A model generated the notes under the pieces. It had not been told where the DNA came from, made no database searches, and worked only from the letters and a program-made list of their open reading frames with translations. Positions 2,088 to 7,868 of a stretch of 10,342 nucleotides of DNA are shown here, in pieces; position 1 is the stretch's first letter, and the number at the start of each line of letters is the position of its first letter. The stretch is from a virus: the UHGV virus genome UHGV-0155330; one strand, written 5' to 3'. Both the position numbers and the translations under genes were made by a program.

Positions 2088-2165
2088 AATCTGCCTCACA
2101 ATCCCCCACAAGTTTTTCTATTTTTCGCGTAGCAACGCGTAAACATGTATTCAGGAGTAAACATT

Positions 2166-3536
2166 ATGCCATCCAATTTAGAATTGGCGGTTAATGCTGC
2201 CTTGTCTCAACGCCAGGCGGCCTACGCCCGCTATGCAGCCGCCAACCCATTCACTATGGGGATAGATGCCAAACGCGATGCTGCGTGGAGTGAATACGGA
2301 TTCAAAGAAGAGATCACGTATGACGATCTATACAAACTGTACAGGCGCGGTGGTATCGCTCATGGTGCTGTAGAAAAGATTATCACAACTTGCTGGCGCA
2401 CCAGGCCAACGATGATTGAAGGAACCGAAGACGAGAAAGCCGAAACGGAAACACCCTGGGAAAGAGAAATCAAGAAACAATTTGATAACAGATTTTGGCG
2501 TGTCATTGCCGAATGCGACCGCCGCCGCCTCATCGGTCGTTATGCTGGCCTGTTAATTCATGTCAGAGATAACCAGCCGTGGGATCAGCCAGTAACAAAA
2601 GGCGTAGGCATTGCCAAATTTACCCCCGTATGGGCTGGTGCTCTTACACCGAAGGACTTCGAAGAAAACCCGGATAAAGAAAACTATGGCCTGCCTACAT
2701 GGTGGGAATACAAGGAGCGCATTAACAATAAGACCATAGCAAGAAAGATACATCCAGATCGCATATTTATCTTCGGTGATTATTCTGATGATGCCATTGC
2801 TTTCCTTGAGCCGTCCTATAACGCATTCGTTTCGCTGGAGAAAGTGGAAGGCGGCAGCGGTGAATCATTCCTGAAAAACGCAGCACGTCAACTTGCTATC
2901 TCGTTCGATAAAGAAATTGATTTCCGTTCTCTGGCTGCAACATACGGATGCGACGTCACAGAGCTGCGCGAAAAATTCAACGAGGCAGCGGCTGAAATGA
3001 ATAAGGGTAACGACGTGATGATGGCATTACAGGGGGCAACAGTAAGCCCGCTAGTGACTGCCGTATCTGACCCGTCAGCAACCTATGACGTAAACCTGCA
3101 AACTGCCGCCGCTGGTATTGATATTCCGACCCGCATCCTGGTTGGTAACCAGCAGGGCGAACGCGCATCAACCGAAGATCTCCGCTACTTCAACAGCCGC
3201 TGTATGACCCGCCGCGAGGAAATCGGAGGCGAGCTTGAGGAACTATTCCGCAAGATGGCAGATCTCCGCCTTATCAGTATGCCAATTGATGTATCAGTTA
3301 TATGGGACGACCTGAACGCCATGACTAAAGCCGAACTACTGGAAGCGGCATACAAAATGGCACAAATCAATCAGGCTTGTCTGGCTACTGGTGAAGAAAT
3401 ATTTAGCGGTGACGAGATCCGCGAGGCTGCCGGATACGATGGCCCTGCCAGTGTAGTAGAAACGGAAGAGGAAAACGATGATGAAGGTGAAGAAGATAAT
3501 CAGGCGAATACCTCCAGCCGCTATAATGCCATCTAA
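2166..3536 (+). CDS. Portal protein
   Basis: About 457-aa ORF between terL and the Mu F-like head protein, the canonical portal position. Highly acidic C-terminal tail (ETEEENDDEGEEDNQ). ATG 2166 preceded by AGGAG (2153-2157) at 8-nt spacing; the in-frame upstream ATG 2145 lacks an SD. Confidence 0.75.
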   Translation: MPSNLELAVNAALSQRQAAYARYAAANPFTMGIDAKRDAAWSEYGFKEEITYDDLYKLYRRGGIAHGAVEKIITTCWRTRPTMIEGTEDEKAETETPWEREIKKQFDNRFWRVIAECDRRRLIGRYAGLLIHVRDNQPWDQPVTKGVGIAKFTPVWAGALTPKDFEENPDKENYGLPTWWEYKERINNKTIARKIHPDRIFIFGDYSDDAIAFLEPSYNAFVSLEKVEGGSGESFLKNAARQLAISFDKEIDFRSLAATYGCDVTELREKFNEAAAEMNKGNDVMMALQGATVSPLVTAVSDPSATYDVNLQTAAAGIDIPTRILVGNQQGERASTEDLRYFNSRCMTRREEIGGELEELFRKMADLRLISMPIDVSVIWDDLNAMTKAELLEAAYKMAQINQACLATGEEIFSGDEIREAAGYDGPASVVETEEENDDEGEEDNQANTSSRYNAI

Positions 3537-4422
3537 CACCGAAGACCCGACCATGACAGGTAAGTTACGGTCGGGAGCTATCAAGCGTTTTAAAGCCTGC
3601 CTGAAGAAAGTCGCGGATCCGTATATTGCCATACTGGACAGAATACAATATACCCTGGCTGTTAATAAGAAGTACACCTTCCAGATCTACATTGACGAAT
3701 TGCATGATTTGCTGGAAGACGCCAGCGACATGATTGATGAAATATTCGAGTTAACAGACCCTGAAAACTTCTGGTTCTGGCAGAATTACGTGAAGGTGGC
3801 ATATCAGCGCGGCACTTCACAGGAATATGCCAACCTCTCTAACCAGTCAGTCACATATTCCAGAGCTTATCCAGAAGTGTCGGCGGTATTAACCAGTCAG
3901 ACATATCGCACACGCCTTGCCCTGGTCCGTACCCGTGTATTTGAAGAGATGCGCGGGCTTACAGCACAGATCAAGAAGGATATGGCTCGCCGATTAACTG
4001 AAGGCATGGCCCGTGGCTTAAACCCACTGGAAATAGCACGCACATTGCAGCAGGAAACGCAATTGCCGCTATACAGGTGTAAACGTATTGCCCGTACTGA
4101 AATATGCACAGCGTTACGCACAGCTCGTATGGATGAGGCAGAGGCCGCATCGGATGAGCTTAACTTGCGCACTATGCAGATGCACATTTCTGCACTGTCA
4201 CCGACTACCAGGTTATCACACGCACAGCGGCACGGGAAAACGTACACCATAGAAGAGCAGCGCGAATGGTGGAGCAGATCCCCAAATTCAATTAACTGCA
4301 AATGTAGCACTATTACCGTGATGGTCGATGAATCTGGTAACATATTAAACAAACGAATATTAGATCGGGCGCAAGAAAACTATAAGGTTGCGCACGCTAA
4401 ATATGGCGAAGATTGGGAGTAA
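3526..4422 (+). CDS. Phage Mu F-like / SPP1 gp7-like minor head (head morphogenesis) protein
   Basis: Motifs characteristic of the Mu F family: RIARTEICTALRTAR, HISALSPTTR, AQRHGKTY, NCKCS. Start is ambiguous: in-frame ATGs at 3478, 3526 and 3553. I chose 3526, which overlaps the portal stop (3534-3536). Confidence 0.75.
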   Translation: MPSNTEDPTMTGKLRSGAIKRFKACLKKVADPYIAILDRIQYTLAVNKKYTFQIYIDELHDLLEDASDMIDEIFELTDPENFWFWQNYVKVAYQRGTSQEYANLSNQSVTYSRAYPEVSAVLTSQTYRTRLALVRTRVFEEMRGLTAQIKKDMARRLTEGMARGLNPLEIARTLQQETQLPLYRCKRIARTEICTALRTARMDEAEAASDELNLRTMQMHISALSPTTRLSHAQRHGKTYTIEEQREWWSRSPNSINCKCSTITVMVDESGNILNKRILDRAQENYKVAHAKYGEDWE

Positions 4423-4427
4423 AAACC

Positions 4428-5717
4428 GTGAATAAAGAACTGATTCAGGTTAATACCAAATTAACCGCTAATACCATCCGCCGGGAAACATATAACGGTC
4501 GCGAACACATTGTGGTTCCGTCGTATACGTTGCCCTTTAATATCGTTATGAATCGGGAATATTACCCGGAAGCTGAAATCATTGCTAATTATCAATCTTT
4601 GGAAGGTACGCTTGCGCCGCTGGGTCATCCTACCGTAGACGGTGAATTTGTTTCCGCATTTAGCCCGGAAGGTCTGAATATTGGCTTTTGCGGAGCGTGG
4701 AACAGAAATGTTGAATTACGTGGCAACCGTGTTTATGTGGAAAAATGGGTGGATGTTGAAACCGCCAGCCATTCAGAACAAGGTCGCGAATTATTAAGCC
4801 GACTCGAAGCACTGGAAAAAGGTGAAAGCAAAGATCCGATCTGGTCATCTGTTGCCGTATATCGTCAGCGTATGCCAGCTACTGAAGAAATGAAAGCACA
4901 GGGTGCTGACAGCGTGGTTAAAATCATGTCAATCGACCATGACGCCATCCTACTTCATGAACCGCCAGCCGCATCGCCAGAACAGGGTGTTGGCCTGATG
5001 GTTAACACTGACCAGGCGAAGCCGTTAATGGCGGTGGCAATGAAAGAAAACAGCTATCGCACGCTTGAGAAACAATTAACTGACGCGGCGCGGGAATTAT
5101 TCCCTGATGCCGATTATGTGTATGTGGTGGACTTCACTGATAAAGAAGTGACGATCGCCACTAATACTGAAAGTGCTCAAGTTTGCACGTATGAAAAACA
5201 GGCTGATAAAATAATTCTCAATAATGGCGAGCTTGCAACCAATGAGGAAAGTAAATCGTGGTTCGCTCAGTTCGCTGAACACTTATCTAATCTTTTCTCC
5301 CTGAATGAAAAAATTAAGGCCAATAAATCGGAGGGTGAACCCATGCCTTTGACCAAAGAAGAACGCGCCGAACTGGTAAAAGAAATTAACGAAGGTTTAG
5401 CCGCTAATATCGCCAGTGCAGTAGCTGAAGCACTTAAACCAGTACAGGCAAGCGTTGAAGAATTACAGACCAACCAAAAAGAATTGCAGACCAACCAGAA
5501 AGCGATTAAAGAAGAGATCGCAGCAAACGCAGATAAAGAAGTAGCAGAAAAACGCGCCGCAGTAGCAAAAGTACACGGCGAAATTGTTGCTAACGCATTA
5601 AGTGGTGAAGCGTTAGAAGCAATGTTTAAATCCCTGGGCAAAGCAGCGCCGATGGCAACCAACGCAGCAAGCGAAGGTAAAAAAGGCGAAGTACCAGACT
5701 TTAACACTTATTTCTAA
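4428..5717 (+). CDS. Head maturation protease / scaffolding-type protein with C-terminal coiled-coil (putative)
   Basis: Large ORF between the Mu F-like gene and the capsid genes. The C-terminal third is Ala/Glu/Lys-rich with heptad-like repeats (ELQTNQKELQTNQKAIKEEI), typical of scaffold domains. Preferred start is GTG 4428, preceded by GGGAG (4415-4419); the ORF track's TTG 4413 overlaps the upstream stop. Whether the N-terminal part is a protease cannot be decided by eye. Confidence 0.55.
   Translation: MNKELIQVNTKLTANTIRRETYNGREHIVVPSYTLPFNIVMNREYYPEAEIIANYQSLEGTLAPLGHPTVDGEFVSAFSPEGLNIGFCGAWNRNVELRGNRVYVEKWVDVETASHSEQGRELLSRLEALEKGESKDPIWSSVAVYRQRMPATEEMKAQGADSVVKIMSIDHDAILLHEPPAASPEQGVGLMVNTDQAKPLMAVAMKENSYRTLEKQLTDAARELFPDADYVYVVDFTDKEVTIATNTESAQVCTYEKQADKIILNNGELATNEESKSWFAQFAEHLSNLFSLNEKIKANKSEGEPMPLTKEERAELVKEINEGLAANIASAVAEALKPVQASVEELQTNQKELQTNQKAIKEEIAANADKEVAEKRAAVAKVHGEIVANALSGEALEAMFKSLGKAAPMATNAASEGKKGEVPDFNTYF
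5460..5501 (+). repeat. Imperfect 21-bp tandem duplication (GAATTACAGACCAACCAAAAA / GAATTGCAGACCAACCAGAAA) inside the scaffold coiled-coil region
   Basis: Two adjacent 21-nt units differing at 2 positions, in frame, encoding ELQTNQK twice. Confidence 0.9.
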
Positions 5718-5733
5718 TTAAAAGGGGATCACA

Positions 5734-6156
5734 ATGTTTCGTTTTCGTCGTGTAAATATTGATGGTAAATCCATCACAGAAACCCGCCTCGCTGGTGCTG
5801 AATTAAAACCTGGTGAACTGGTTAAACTTGAAGGCGGTAAATTCGTTAAAGCGGCCCCTGCTGATGTTGGCAAGGGACAGTTGTATATCGTTAACCCGGC
5901 ATTCCATGAAGGTAAAACCATTGCTGATGCAATCGCTGCAAATGCAACCGTTGTAGCCGATTATGTGGAACAGGGGCGTGAGTTTGCTCTCCGTGTTCCT
6001 AAGGCCACTTATGCCAAAGGCGCAGCCATTTCCCTTGCGGCAGATGGCGCTAAATTGTCTTCTGCTGTGGAAGGCGGCTCAGCACCAATCATTGCATTCT
6101 GCCAGGAAGATGTGACCCTGACCGCAGAAGACTTCATCCGAGTTCGCGTCGCTTAA
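5734..6156 (+). CDS. Small capsid-associated protein, possibly a head decoration protein (or small head subunit precursor)
   Basis: 140-aa Gly/Ala-rich ORF directly upstream of the major capsid gene. Strong SD AAAGGGGA before ATG 5734. Codon usage is biased like the capsid gene, suggesting high expression. The function is inferred from position and composition only. Confidence 0.4.
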   Translation: MFRFRRVNIDGKSITETRLAGAELKPGELVKLEGGKFVKAAPADVGKGQLYIVNPAFHEGKTIADAIAANATVVADYVEQGREFALRVPKATYAKGAAISLAADGAKLSSAVEGGSAPIIAFCQEDVTLTAEDFIRVRVA

Positions 6157-6173
6157 TTTAAAAGGGGAAAAAC

Positions 6174-7226
6174 ATGTACTTTACCAAAGAAAACCTTGCT
6201 ACCAACGCCCGTATGCAGGGCCATTGGAACGAACTGTGGGCGCAACGCAATATCTTCAACGCTCAACATGACGCCATGATTGCAGCGAACAAAGCAAACA
6301 TGACTTCTGAAATGTTGGCCTGCAACGCTGTTGGTGGCTTCGCAAAAGAGTTCTGGAAAGAAATCGATAACCAGATCATCGAACTGAACACCGAGGAAAT
6401 CGGTATTGAAATCGTCAACGACCTGATGGGTGTTCAAACCGTACTGCCTATCGGTAAAACGCTGAAAATGTACAGCGTATCCGGTGACATCAACGATGAA
6501 GTCGTAATGTCTATGGATGGCCAGGCACCGCACGGCTTTGATCACACCGAATACGGCAGCGATGGCGACCCGATCCCGATGTTCGCGGCTGGTTATGGTG
6601 TCAACTGGCGTCTTGCTCAGGGCCTGAATACTGTAGGCATTGACCTTGCCCTTGACAGCCAGCGCCTGAAACTGAAAAAATTCAACAAAGCACGCGTTAA
6701 CTTCTATCTGAACGGTAACGAAAACATCAAGGTTGATGGTCATAAAGCTATGGGTATTAAAAACCACAAAAACACCCAGCAACTGACCCTGACAACTGAC
6801 CTGACCACTGCGCAATTTGACGCACTGATCGACTTCTTCACCATTGGTGAATTCGGCGTTCTGGCCCGCAATAACTTCGTTGCTAAATATGATGTTATGT
6901 GGGTATCACCTGAAATCATGGCTAACCTGGCACGTCCGCACATCGTTAACGGTGCTGTGGTTGGTAGCGTGCTGCAAACGGTTATGCCGTTCGCCCCGGT
7001 AGGTGAAATCCGCCAGACCTTTGCACTGAAAGGAAATGAAATTATTGCTTATCAGCGCCGCCGTGATGTCATCACCCCGCTGATCGGTATGACTACTGGC
7101 GTTGTACCTGTACCGCGCTTTATGCCGACTGATAACTATAACTTCAAAATCATGTCTGCCGAAGGTTTACAAATCACCTGCGACATGTTAGGCCGTTCCG
7201 GTGTCGTTTACGGCAAAAATTCTTAA
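6174..7226 (+). CDS. Major capsid protein
   Basis: 350-aa ORF in the canonical position after the scaffold/decoration genes. Strongly optimised codon usage, strong SD AAAGGGGA before ATG 6174, and a strong intrinsic terminator immediately downstream. The size fits an HK97-fold capsid protein without a long delta domain. Confidence 0.75.
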   Translation: MYFTKENLATNARMQGHWNELWAQRNIFNAQHDAMIAANKANMTSEMLACNAVGGFAKEFWKEIDNQIIELNTEEIGIEIVNDLMGVQTVLPIGKTLKMYSVSGDINDEVVMSMDGQAPHGFDHTEYGSDGDPIPMFAAGYGVNWRLAQGLNTVGIDLALDSQRLKLKKFNKARVNFYLNGNENIKVDGHKAMGIKNHKNTQQLTLTTDLTTAQFDALIDFFTIGEFGVLARNNFVAKYDVMWVSPEIMANLARPHIVNGAVVGSVLQTVMPFAPVGEIRQTFALKGNEIIAYQRRRDVITPLIGMTTGVVPVPRFMPTDNYNFKIMSAEGLQITCDMLGRSGVVYGKNS

Positions 7227-7682: not shown

Positions 7683-7868
7683 ATGTGGAATGACCTTACA
7701 TTACCGGATCCGTTATTGCCAAAACTGTTTACCCGCGTATGGGTGAAGACTGACACCGGGCGACAGGTTGCGGCATATCTCAATGACGCTGGCGAATGGG
7801 TGATTCTTTGCCCACGCGTGGCGAAAACCCATCCGAAAATCGTCAAATGGAGCTATGGCTATGAGTAA
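7683..7868 (+). CDS. Hypothetical small protein (61 aa) in the head-tail joining cluster
   Basis: Strong SD GGGAGGA (7669-7675) before ATG 7683. Start lies 2 nt after the upstream stop and the ORF overlaps the downstream gene start, suggesting a translationally coupled real gene. Confidence 0.45.
   Translation: MWNDLTLPDPLLPKLFTRVWVKTDTGRQVAAYLNDAGEWVILCPRVAKTHPKIVKWSYGYE

Follow-up and report, generated by a model that had tools for sequence, protein, structure and literature searches.

Nested head genes in described phages and the gene in the window

The C and nu3 genes of phage lambda have been presented as the classic overlapping morphogenetic genes (Shaw & Murialdo 1980, as cited in PMC8508860). 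RefSeq annotates nu3 inside C; the two products are read in one frame and end in the same C-terminus, and their gene lies between the portal gene and the decoration and capsid genes, in the order C/nu3, D, E. Phage Mu has an in-frame nested gene, Z, that has the C-terminus of the head protease I and encodes the scaffold (p20); RefSeq annotates Z inside I. In herpesvirus UL26/UL26.5, the shorter product has a separate internal promoter and mRNA. In phage T4, the scaffold proteins gp22, gp67, and gp68 are encoded by separate genes, and the internal start of gene 21 lies near the N-terminus and hence yields no scaffold. The "prohead protease" of Drexlerviridae (T1-like phages) has been described as a single fusion of a protease and a helical scaffold, and that description mentions no nested product.

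We analyzed a 10,342-nt stretch of virus genome UHGV-0155330 (hereafter the window, meaning the whole stretch; the features below lie on its plus strand unless stated otherwise), in which a preliminary description had proposed a nested scaffold start within a 434-aa head-morphogenesis gene. The length of 434 holds for the mechanical open reading frame (ORF), which runs from TTG 4413 to position 5717 and has 434 codons, and not for the likely protein. GTG 4428 is the most likely start of the full-length protein, in agreement with the mEp021 annotation and with the N-termini of homologues, and the gene (4428-5717) then encodes 429 aa (47.4 kDa). Its Shine-Dalgarno (SD) sequence GGGAG (4415-4419; duplex dG -6.8) is recognized in the sequence, and mEp021 is annotated with the same ribosome-binding site and start. 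The upstream Mu-F-like gene runs to its stop codon at 4420-4422 and so includes this GGGAG at its 3' end, which probably couples translation of the full-length gene to that of its neighbor. The window protein matches PHROG 760 (function unknown) over residues 8-433 with an E value of 1.9e-134, and a Pfam search with it returned no match, even at E<=10.

The gene order is portal, Mu-F-like gene, window gene, decoration gene, and capsid gene, and between the portal and capsid genes nothing else in the head module is a scaffold candidate. The major capsid protein gene (6174-7226) encodes 350 aa; only about 50 residues remain N-terminal to the capsid Pfam domain, so that a delta domain is unlikely. 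In GenBank, the mEp021 orthologue gp54 lacks the "virion structural protein" label that its neighbors carry, which fits a protein that leaves the capsid. The published proteomics text of mEp021 and two of its supplements do not name gp54, and the detected proteins are not listed there.

The N-terminal domain (4467-4985, residues 14-186) is modeled with pLDDT >90 in a T4 gp21/assemblin fold and shows three-dimensional similarity to assemblin, T4 gp21, and the HK97-type prohead serine protease. Judged from this model, the N-terminal part is a capsid maturation (prohead) protease with predicted activity, and "prohead protease-scaffold fusion" describes the gene better than the "head-morphogenesis" label. 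The candidate catalytic His is the invariant His67 (4626-4628, motif PLGHP), which we liken to His85 of T4 gp21 (ELNHP) and which pairs with it in a weak hhalign alignment. The candidate catalytic Ser lies at Ser140-Ser141 (4845-4850, IWSSVAV), which resembles the gp21 motif GVS140S141RG in a mapping based on motif and order; the H85A/S140A form of T4 gp21 is catalytically dead. His67 is invariant in both homologue alignments (A1 and A2) and Ser141 is invariant; taken together, His67 and Ser140/Ser141 are invariant or nearly so. Asp170-His171-Asp172 (4935-4943, IDHDAILL), invariant in alignment A2, is the candidate third triad member by analogy with assemblins, which use a Ser-His-His triad.

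The proposed expression strategy is that of lambda C/Nu3 and Mu I/Z, without detectable sequence homology to either. The lambda-like logic of the preliminary description survives as a functional analogy and not as homology. gpC is an S49/ClpP-type peptidase of another fold (PF01343, 1.5e-44), whereas the window protein has no PF01343 match and an hhalign probability of 0.5% against gpC. In addition, it is the full-length start that has the stronger SD in lambda (C -12.0, nu3 -6.9), unlike here, and nu3 begins at 54% of C. In Mu, the internal SD outscores the full-length one, as here (Z -7.4 versus I -2.8), and the neighborhood is also the same (portal, Mu-F-like protein, protease/scaffold, and major head protein). 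However, the window protein and Mu I show no detectable homology (hhalign probability 0.6%), Mu I matches PF10123 at 2.3e-98 while the window protein does not match it, Z starts about 49% into I while the nested start here lies at 71%, and a decoration gene separates the window gene from the capsid gene. The identity to T4 gp21 is 13%, with no significant hhalign profile match. The T4 gp21/assemblin fold makes Mu I/Z and herpesvirus UL26/UL26.5 closer analogies than lambda.

Proteins of the T1-like phages Bas04-Bas13 are putative distant relatives of the window protein. Macdonaldcampvirus SB28 and phage Bas78, found by tblastn at 27-30% identity, have an SD-like element and an ATG at the domain boundary. 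Two of the distant relatives, ENT47670 (29.2 bits) and, at the cut-off, SB28 (22.0 bits), match PF09979 (DUF2213), and UniRef names one homologue cluster DUF2213. Since these relatives match PF09979 and the window protein does not, the window gene is related to DUF2213 but outside the model.

The proposed internal start and the part behind it

The element GGAGGG (5330-5335) and the in-frame ATG (5343-5345) are separated by the 7-nt spacer TGAACCC (5336-5342), exactly as had been reported for this locus. The ATG is in frame with ORF 4413-5717, since (5343-4413)/3 = 310, and it encodes Met306 in the 429-aa protein (codon 311 when the 434-codon ORF is counted). The nested ORF (5343-5717) has its C-terminus in common with the protease and encodes a predicted scaffolding protein of 124 aa (13.2 kDa, pI 5.0), one residue shorter than the 125 aa first given. 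The Ala/Glu/Lys-rich character noted for this part is real (Ala 20%, Glu 14.5%, and Lys 10.5%), and the three residues make up 45% of the product.

The anti-SD duplex energy at ATG 5343 is -10.0 kcal/mol, which ranks third among all 237 plus-strand ATGs of the window. It is outscored only by ATGs 7683 and 8232, both of which are starts of ORFs read as real genes; the ORF starting at 7683 is absent from the mEp021 annotation. We also considered the other in-frame Met codons of the gene as nested starts and rejected them, because none in the window has an SD duplex energy below -6.1. The internal site at GVG-M-MVN, which is strong in some relatives, was likewise set aside as lineage-specific; it reaches only -3.9 in the window. 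A search of positions 4300-6200 found no plus-strand promoter-like site, which speaks against a herpesvirus-style internal promoter and implies that a short product must arise by internal translation initiation from a ribosome-binding site. Gene callers pick the equivalent of ATG 5343 whenever the upstream part of the gene is missing; this shows that the sequence signal is strong and says nothing on expression.

The internal start falls between two structurally different parts of the protein. The middle region (5046-5306, residues 207-293), which is mosaic between close relatives, comprises a domain of a small helix and a four-stranded sheet (residues 207-268), a low-confidence loop (269-277), and a helix (278-293). 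It is followed by a low-confidence, non-helical inter-domain linker (5307-5354, residues 294-309; AlphaFold2 (AF2) pLDDT below 50 for 292-303), which contains the internal translation initiation region and in which the amino acids are variable while the nucleotides are conserved. AF2 thus places the internal start in a disordered linker just before a 74-residue alpha-helix, the scaffold "spine" (5355-5576, residues 310-383), modeled with pLDDT of about 80-97. Within the spine, TRF and the homologue alignment reveal a 21-nt tandem repeat of 2.1 copies (5458-5502) that encodes the heptad ELQTNQK, and its copy number differs between homologues in units of 7 residues. The C-terminal tail (5634-5714, residues 403-429) is disordered through residue 422 in the AF2 model and ends in the conserved motif PDFNTYF; common to both products, it is a candidate capsid-binding or targeting end. 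Searches of known scaffolds and solved structures with the C-terminal part yielded only coiled-coil noise and no sequence or profile link. The 124-aa part alone matches positions 342-445 of the PHROG 760 profile (E 5.7e-20). Its position, helicity, and composition suggest a scaffolding function.

The family comprises 1,447 clusters at 50% identity and reaches Jersey-like and possibly T1-like phages, Pseudomonas and Bordetella prophages, and environmental phages, and a close version of the window gene occurs in 35 of 5,426 complete E. coli genomes. PHROGs and most of the GenBank/RefSeq records examined label the gene "hypothetical protein" or "unknown function"; some records say "coat protein" or "capsid protein", which is wrong, and a few say "prohead protease". 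The database records examined give one protein each and none annotates a nested product. In the literature searched on DUF2213, nested scaffolds, internal starts, and Drexlerviridae, no nested product is described for the family of the window gene. The many stand-alone "scaffold" proteins of 114 or 124 aa that a search with the 124-aa product returned proved to be gene-caller artefacts at contig edges, as their contigs begin 18-57 nt upstream of the ATG. In one 25-kb contig (L209), probably the result of a deletion or a chimera, the nested ORF is joined to a terminase fragment. Stand-alone protease genes of about 200 aa have ends that look frameshifted or truncated and give no sign of natural fission, and our search of the family for a split protease gene with a separate scaffold gene found no genuine case. 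The antisense 146-aa ORF (5267-5707) was also rejected as a by-product of GAA/GCA/AAA-rich coding that lacks conservation (stop-free run: median 85 codons, minimum 43).

Conservation of the proposed internal start and competing explanations

We compared the internal start among homologous loci with 47-97% identity from Enterobacterales, Pseudomonas, Bordetella, Achromobacter, Pusillimonas, and others. Of the 123 loci, 122 retain the ATG, and GGAGG or GAGG always lies 4-8 nt upstream, while the residues encoded at the SD vary (EGEP, EDDP, EETD, EDLD, TEGD, and KEAE). Third-position entropy, computed over 86 non-redundant homologues, reaches its lowest values for the gene in four 5-codon windows directly 5' of the internal ATG, and amino-acid entropy is high in the same windows. 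The Glu codon of the SD is GAG in 86/86 homologues, compared with 37% GAG elsewhere in the gene. All 86 also have G as the wobble base before it, whether the preceding codon encodes T, E, K, M, L, S, Q, or P; given the shared ancestry of the homologues, such counts exaggerate how many independent events they represent. Synonymous choice is restricted at the codon after the ATG as well, with CCT in 82/86. When synonymous codons were resampled, the median chance of an equally strong SD was 13% per upstream peptide context, and an equally strong SD is present in all 21 of the 21 contexts. The full-length start has the weaker SD in 82 of the 86 homologues and is often GTG or TTG, and predicted mRNA structure is weakest around the internal start, as it is at true starts.

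The signal extends to more distant members of the family. Met is found within +/-4 alignment columns of the boundary in 43 of 46 distant cluster representatives, with Val in two more, and branches with unrelated C-terminal sequences carry, at relative position 0.65-0.75, an ATG with an SD-like element. The GC-rich and environmental branches have a weak SD-like element (-4 to -6.6 kcal/mol), and in some loci another internal site scores higher. Taken across the aligned sequences, the internal ATG and its SD are under nucleotide-level selection throughout the family and do not reflect chance.

This pattern bears on two explanations that involve no internal start. The peptide Glu-Gly-x-Met-Pro-Leu-Thr could act at the level of the protein, for instance as an autoproteolytic cleavage site that sets the scaffold domain free or as a helix cap, with the SD-like sequence as a by-product of Glu and Gly codons. 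T4-type prohead proteases cleave after Glu, a Glu always lies 2-4 residues before the Met, MPLTxEE is conserved in the protein, and the Gly-rich GVG-M-MVN elsewhere in the gene makes chance SD-like sequences in some lineages. However, the chance element at GVG-M-MVN is not conserved and is weak in the window, branches with very different peptides retain the ATG and a purine-rich element at the boundary, and a peptide signal leaves unexplained the fixed GAG, the invariant wobble G in eight different codons, the third-position entropy minimum amid high amino-acid entropy, and the resampling result. A protein-level signal and internal initiation are compatible with each other; the version that dispenses with initiation we regard as quite improbable. 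The element could instead be a pause or regulatory site for ribosomes elongating the full-length protein, for example giving the protease and middle domains time to fold ahead of the scaffold helix. Intragenic SD-like sequences have been proposed to slow elongation, an idea that is contested, and the element does coincide exactly with the domain boundary, within a disordered linker. A pause would require no start codon, yet an ATG stands at the proper distance in nearly all loci, Met is retained in most of the distant representatives, the codon after the ATG is constrained, and local mRNA structure is reduced, which makes a mere pause site the least probable of the explanations considered.

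A further alternative accepts the short product but gives it another role than that of a classical scaffold: it could act on the protease, as a regulator or inhibitor that competes for the shared C-terminal binding site, or interact with host defense. Scaffolding is a predicted function, and in distant T1-like relatives the scaffold domain alone triggers CBASS-dependent toxicity, with escape mutations mapping there. On the other hand, nothing else in the head module qualifies as a scaffold candidate, and a delta domain seems to be missing from the capsid protein. A long helix, a composition rich in Ala, Glu, and Lys, and length changes in heptad units are typical of scaffolding proteins, and the same arrangement yields scaffolds in lambda and Mu. 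We give this alternative little credence, about as much as the protein-level signal.

Proposed mechanism and significance

Based on the comparative and structural evidence, we consider it highly probable that 4428-5717 is a protease gene with a nested scaffold that is translated independently from ATG 5343. The proposal of a nested in-frame scaffold start is strongly supported by the conservation of the internal start, the synonymous constraint that reveals selection on ATG and SD, the strength of the internal SD, the position at the linker-helix boundary, the protease fold, and a gene context that offers no other scaffold candidate. From these observations we infer translation from ATG 5343, the ratio of the products, the scaffolding activity, and the proteolytic removal, which may be combined as follows. 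GGAGGG 5330-5335 and ATG 5343 would let ribosomes translate the last 124 codons separately, on the late mRNA that also serves the full-length gene, and the nested product would be a 13-kDa scaffold identical to the C-terminus of the protease. The weak GTG start upstream, coupled to the preceding gene, would provide little full-length protease-scaffold, and the strong internal start would provide far more free scaffold. The helical spine and the C-terminal tail, present in both products, would allow them to co-assemble with the major capsid protein around the portal, and because spine and tail are shared, we propose that a few protease molecules would be carried into each procapsid. After assembly, the protease would degrade the scaffold and itself, and the shell would be emptied for DNA packaging.

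A broader reading is that the internal start is ancient and family-wide rather than peculiar to mEp021-like coliphages, that the product ratio is hard-wired by the weak coupled upstream start and the strong internal one, that the arrangement arose independently on an assemblin-fold protease and converged with those of lambda, Mu, and herpesviruses, and that the free scaffold, rather than the fusion, is the abundant late species met by defense systems such as Type I CBASS. We put this forward tentatively, as slightly less probable than its negation. In the distant T1-like relatives, the scaffold domain helps to determine both CBASS activation and escape from it, and for this reason a separate and abundant production of that domain would matter.

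Any deletion, tagging, or recoding of the window gene must reckon with a second start site inside it. Recognizing the gene as a fusion with a nested scaffold gene would account for the scaffold and protease functions that are so far lacking from the head modules across a very large family of phages and prophages. It would also add a further sequence-unrelated lineage with the answer found in lambda, Mu, and herpesviruses, in which one frame gives two products with a shared C-terminus, and such convergence would lend weight to the idea that a common C-terminus offers a general means of packaging a protease by co-assembly.

Probable internal start site within the head-assembly module

The window comes from an mEp021-like ("mEpimmI") temperate E. 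coli siphophage and represents its head-assembly module; positions 4300-5800 are 88-93% identical to mEp010, mEp044, mEp554, mEp013, mEp021, mEp515, and MagusPhagus. The genes for the small terminase (121-606), large terminase (603-2087), portal (2145-3536), and a Mu-F-like head morphogenesis protein (ending at 4422) are followed by the long ORF containing the nested start (4413-5717), the head decoration protein gene (5734-6156), and the major capsid protein gene (DUF6260; 6174-7226). The first ATG of the portal ORF (2145) has no Shine-Dalgarno (SD) sequence (predicted anti-SD duplex +0.6 kcal/mol), while the in-frame ATG 2166 has one at -6.9, and in the mEp021 record the portal "ribosome_binding_site" falls within the CDS as annotated. 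Translation of the portal gene therefore probably begins at ATG 2166 rather than at 2145. The mechanical start of the Mu-F-like ORF (3478) creates a 59-nt overlap with the portal gene, and the mEp021 annotation starts this gene at the equivalent of 3553 (MTGKLRSG...).

The preliminary description proposed an in-frame internal ATG with a near-consensus SD inside the head gene, and the positions confirm it: GGAGGG (5330-5335) is separated by a 7-nt gap from ATG 5343-5345, in frame with the long ORF. The predicted nested product (5343-5717) is Ala/Glu/Lys-rich as described (45% Ala+Glu+Lys; 13.2 kDa, pI 5.0), but it is 124 aa long, not 125 aa. The long ORF itself most likely starts at GTG 4428, after GGGAG (4415-4419), in line with the mEp021 annotation and with the homologues. 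The predicted protein would have 429 aa; residue numbers follow this protein, in which the internal Met is Met306.

The predicted anti-SD pairing of the internal site (-10.0 kcal/mol) ranks third among the 237 plus-strand ATGs of the window, exceeded only by ATGs 7683 and 8232, the starts of ORFs read as real genes. The long gene's own start and that of the capsid gene pair more weakly (-6.8 and -7.8), and no other in-frame Met of the long gene falls below -6.1. We found no plus-strand promoter-like site in 4300-6200, so a separate short product must come from internal translation initiation on the late mRNA. The 61-aa ORF at 7683-7868 has the strongest pairing of all plus-strand ATGs (-10.3 kcal/mol). 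The mEp021 GenBank record lists no gene at this place, between gp57 and gp58, but on a metagenome contig (L216, 2376-2561) the ORF was picked up by gene calling. The reference annotation has probably overlooked a real small gene here.

Conservation and relative strength of the predicted internal start

We compared 123 homologous loci from viral and bacterial genome collections (protein identity 47-97%), including Enterobacterales, Pseudomonas, Bordetella, Achromobacter, and Pusillimonas. The codon aligned to the internal start is ATG in 122 of them, and all 122 have GGAGG or GAGG 4-8 nt 5' of this ATG, while the residues encoded at the SD vary (EGEP, EDDP, EETD, EDLD, TEGD, KEAE, and others). 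Among 86 non-redundant sequences, the lowest third-position entropy of the whole gene occurs in the four 5-codon windows directly 5' of the ATG, where amino-acid entropy is high. The SD Glu codon is GAG in 86/86, compared to 37% in the rest of the gene; the wobble base completing GGAGG is also G in 86/86, in codons for T, E, K, M, L, S, Q, and P, and the codon following the ATG is CCT in 82/86. Synonymous resampling with family codon usage gives a median 13% chance of an equally strong SD per upstream peptide context, and all 21 distinct contexts carry a strong SD. These contexts are related and hence not 21 independent trials, but despite this kinship the direction of the resampling points unambiguously toward selection for the SD.

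A motif acting at the protein level alone (a cleavage site, for example) cannot explain these data, since it leaves the synonymous-site pattern without explanation. A translational pause element needs no conserved ATG, and it would not require an ATG to be kept at start-site spacing.

In 82/86 homologues the internal SD outranks the best one available to the full-length start (means -9.9 and -5.8 kcal/mol), the full-length gene starts with GTG or TTG in 35/86, and predicted local mRNA structure reaches its minimum between about -70 and +30 relative to the internal ATG. Together, these features predict scaffold in excess of protease, the stoichiometry needed by the procapsid. The asymmetry is shared by Mu (Z -7.4, I -2.8) but not by lambda (C -12.0, nu3 -6.9).

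A complete search of 1.84 billion representative proteins yields 1,447 clusters at 50% identity that match with E <= 0.001. Of 46 full-length representatives that were aligned (30-61% identity), 43 have a Met no more than 4 columns from the boundary, with the loose motif M-[PTD]-x-x-E-E, and in two of the three Met-less representatives Val occupies exactly the equivalent position, which would be compatible with GTG starts. When 160 more distant loci were scanned without alignment, SD-like elements with ATG again appeared at relative position 0.65-0.75, such as "gaaggggaaatctca ATG MTNEEL" in Macdonaldcampvirus SB28 and phage Bas78, and elsewhere "gaggaagtcgat ATG MTPEEL", "aaggagatgtggaa ATG MAVTDEQF", and "gaggataacgct ATG MRDxIIAEL". 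The C-terminal sequences of some of these branches are unrelated, and the signal is weak or ambiguous in GC-rich branches. In contrast to the conserved internal start, a strong SD-like sequence at the GVG-M-MVN Met occurs in some lineages only and is absent from the window.

Protease fold and predicted scaffold

The AlphaFold2 model of the full-length protein (46-sequence alignment; mean pLDDT 81.5) contains a confident alpha/beta domain (residues 14-186), a disordered linker (187-206), a small helix plus sheet domain (207-268), and a helix (278-293). Met306 lies in a low-confidence linker (292-303, non-helical to 309), followed by a single 74-residue helix (310-383), two short helices (385-390 and 393-402), and a tail (403-429) disordered through 422. 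A Foldseek search of the PDB gives a single significant match, the capsid assembly protease gp21 of T4 (5jbl; E 5.7e-5, probability 1.00, TM 0.62 on target), and the named significant matches in a viral predicted-structure library are mostly prohead, HK97-family, or capsid maturation proteases. Family-invariant residues include H67 (PLGHP), S141 (IWSSVAV), and D170-H171-D172. The H67 and S141 motifs occur in the same order as ELNH85P and GVS140S141RG of T4 gp21, whose H85A/S140A form is catalytic-dead, and H67 pairs with gp21 H85 in a weak hhalign alignment. From these we infer H67 and S141 as candidate catalytic residues. Gene 21 in the T4 reference genome (L208 6449-7087) likewise carries an annotated in-frame internal start, at codon 23, which is too near the N-terminus to yield a scaffold.

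The middle domain shows weak cystatin/NTF2-like matches. Mosaic joints seem to flank it (window about 5046-5342; loci L210-L216): in proteins P0088 and P0089 it is replaced, with a 17-aa insertion, and the protease and scaffold parts on either side are nearly identical. Many independent short-read assemblies break 18-57 nt 5' of the internal ATG.

The nested product is modeled as one long helix and is acidic. A 21-nt tandem repeat (5458-5502, 2.1 copies) encodes the heptad ELQTNQK within this helix, and the copy number in close homologues is one, two, or three, so that helix length shifts in whole heptads, as expected of a coiled coil. The capsid protein has 350 aa and its domain covers residues 51-347, leaving little room for an HK97-style delta domain, and we found no other scaffold candidate in the head module. 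The mEp021 record, from the group that ran virion mass spectrometry, labels gp54, the orthologue of the long ORF, "hypothetical protein" and gp55, 56, 57, 58, and 60 "virion structural protein", which would fit a protein that leaves the head. The short product may possibly be made and serve as something other than a scaffold, but the phage would then be left without one. By its predicted structure and context, the short product should be the scaffold, and sequence, structure prediction, and comparative genomics support the nested-scaffold proposal to the extent that such methods can.

An antisense 146-aa ORF (5267-5707, minus strand) is not conserved (open for at least 120 codons in 21/86 homologues, minimum 43), indicating a by-product of the GAA/GCA/AAA-rich sense strand. 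In a 25-kb metagenome contig (L209 2189-3345), a large-terminase C-terminal-domain gene directly adjoins a 114-aa nested ORF, with no portal, Mu-F-like, or protease part present; the contig represents either a defective prophage that has suffered a deletion or a chimeric assembly.

Family assignment and annotation

A scaffold gene nested within a protease gene is an established strategy that will not surprise a specialist, and herpesviruses use it with an assemblin-fold protease via an internal promoter. Reference genomes annotate the nested pairs of lambda (nu3 in C) and Mu (Z in I), and the lambda case goes back to Shaw and Murialdo 1980 (cited in PMC8508860). The long-ORF protein does not match PF01343 or PF10123, and hhalign found no relation to lambda C or Mu I; judged by these comparisons, the long gene is not of either family. 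It belongs to PHROG 760 ("unknown function"); Pfam DUF2213, matched by two distant relatives, narrowly excludes it. A preprint on T1-like Drexlerviridae describes a "prohead protease" with an N-terminal protease and a C-terminal helical scaffolding domain that by itself triggers CBASS-dependent toxicity; the protein is handled as a single fusion, and a nested product is not mentioned.

No second CDS is annotated in seven close phages, 60 sampled phage records, Midgardsormr38, Bas78, or 25 E. coli genomes sampled from the 35 carriers of the gene among 5,426 complete E. coli genomes. Several Salmonella, Escherichia, and Klebsiella phage records (including NC_054638.1, MN737551.1, and PQ280049.1) label the homologue "coat protein" or "capsid protein", almost certainly wrongly, because the true capsid gene is two genes downstream. 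The value of the finding is that a very large "hypothetical" family would gain a protease function, a scaffold function, and a nested gene so far left out of annotations, with a possible link to CBASS sensing of late phage proteins.
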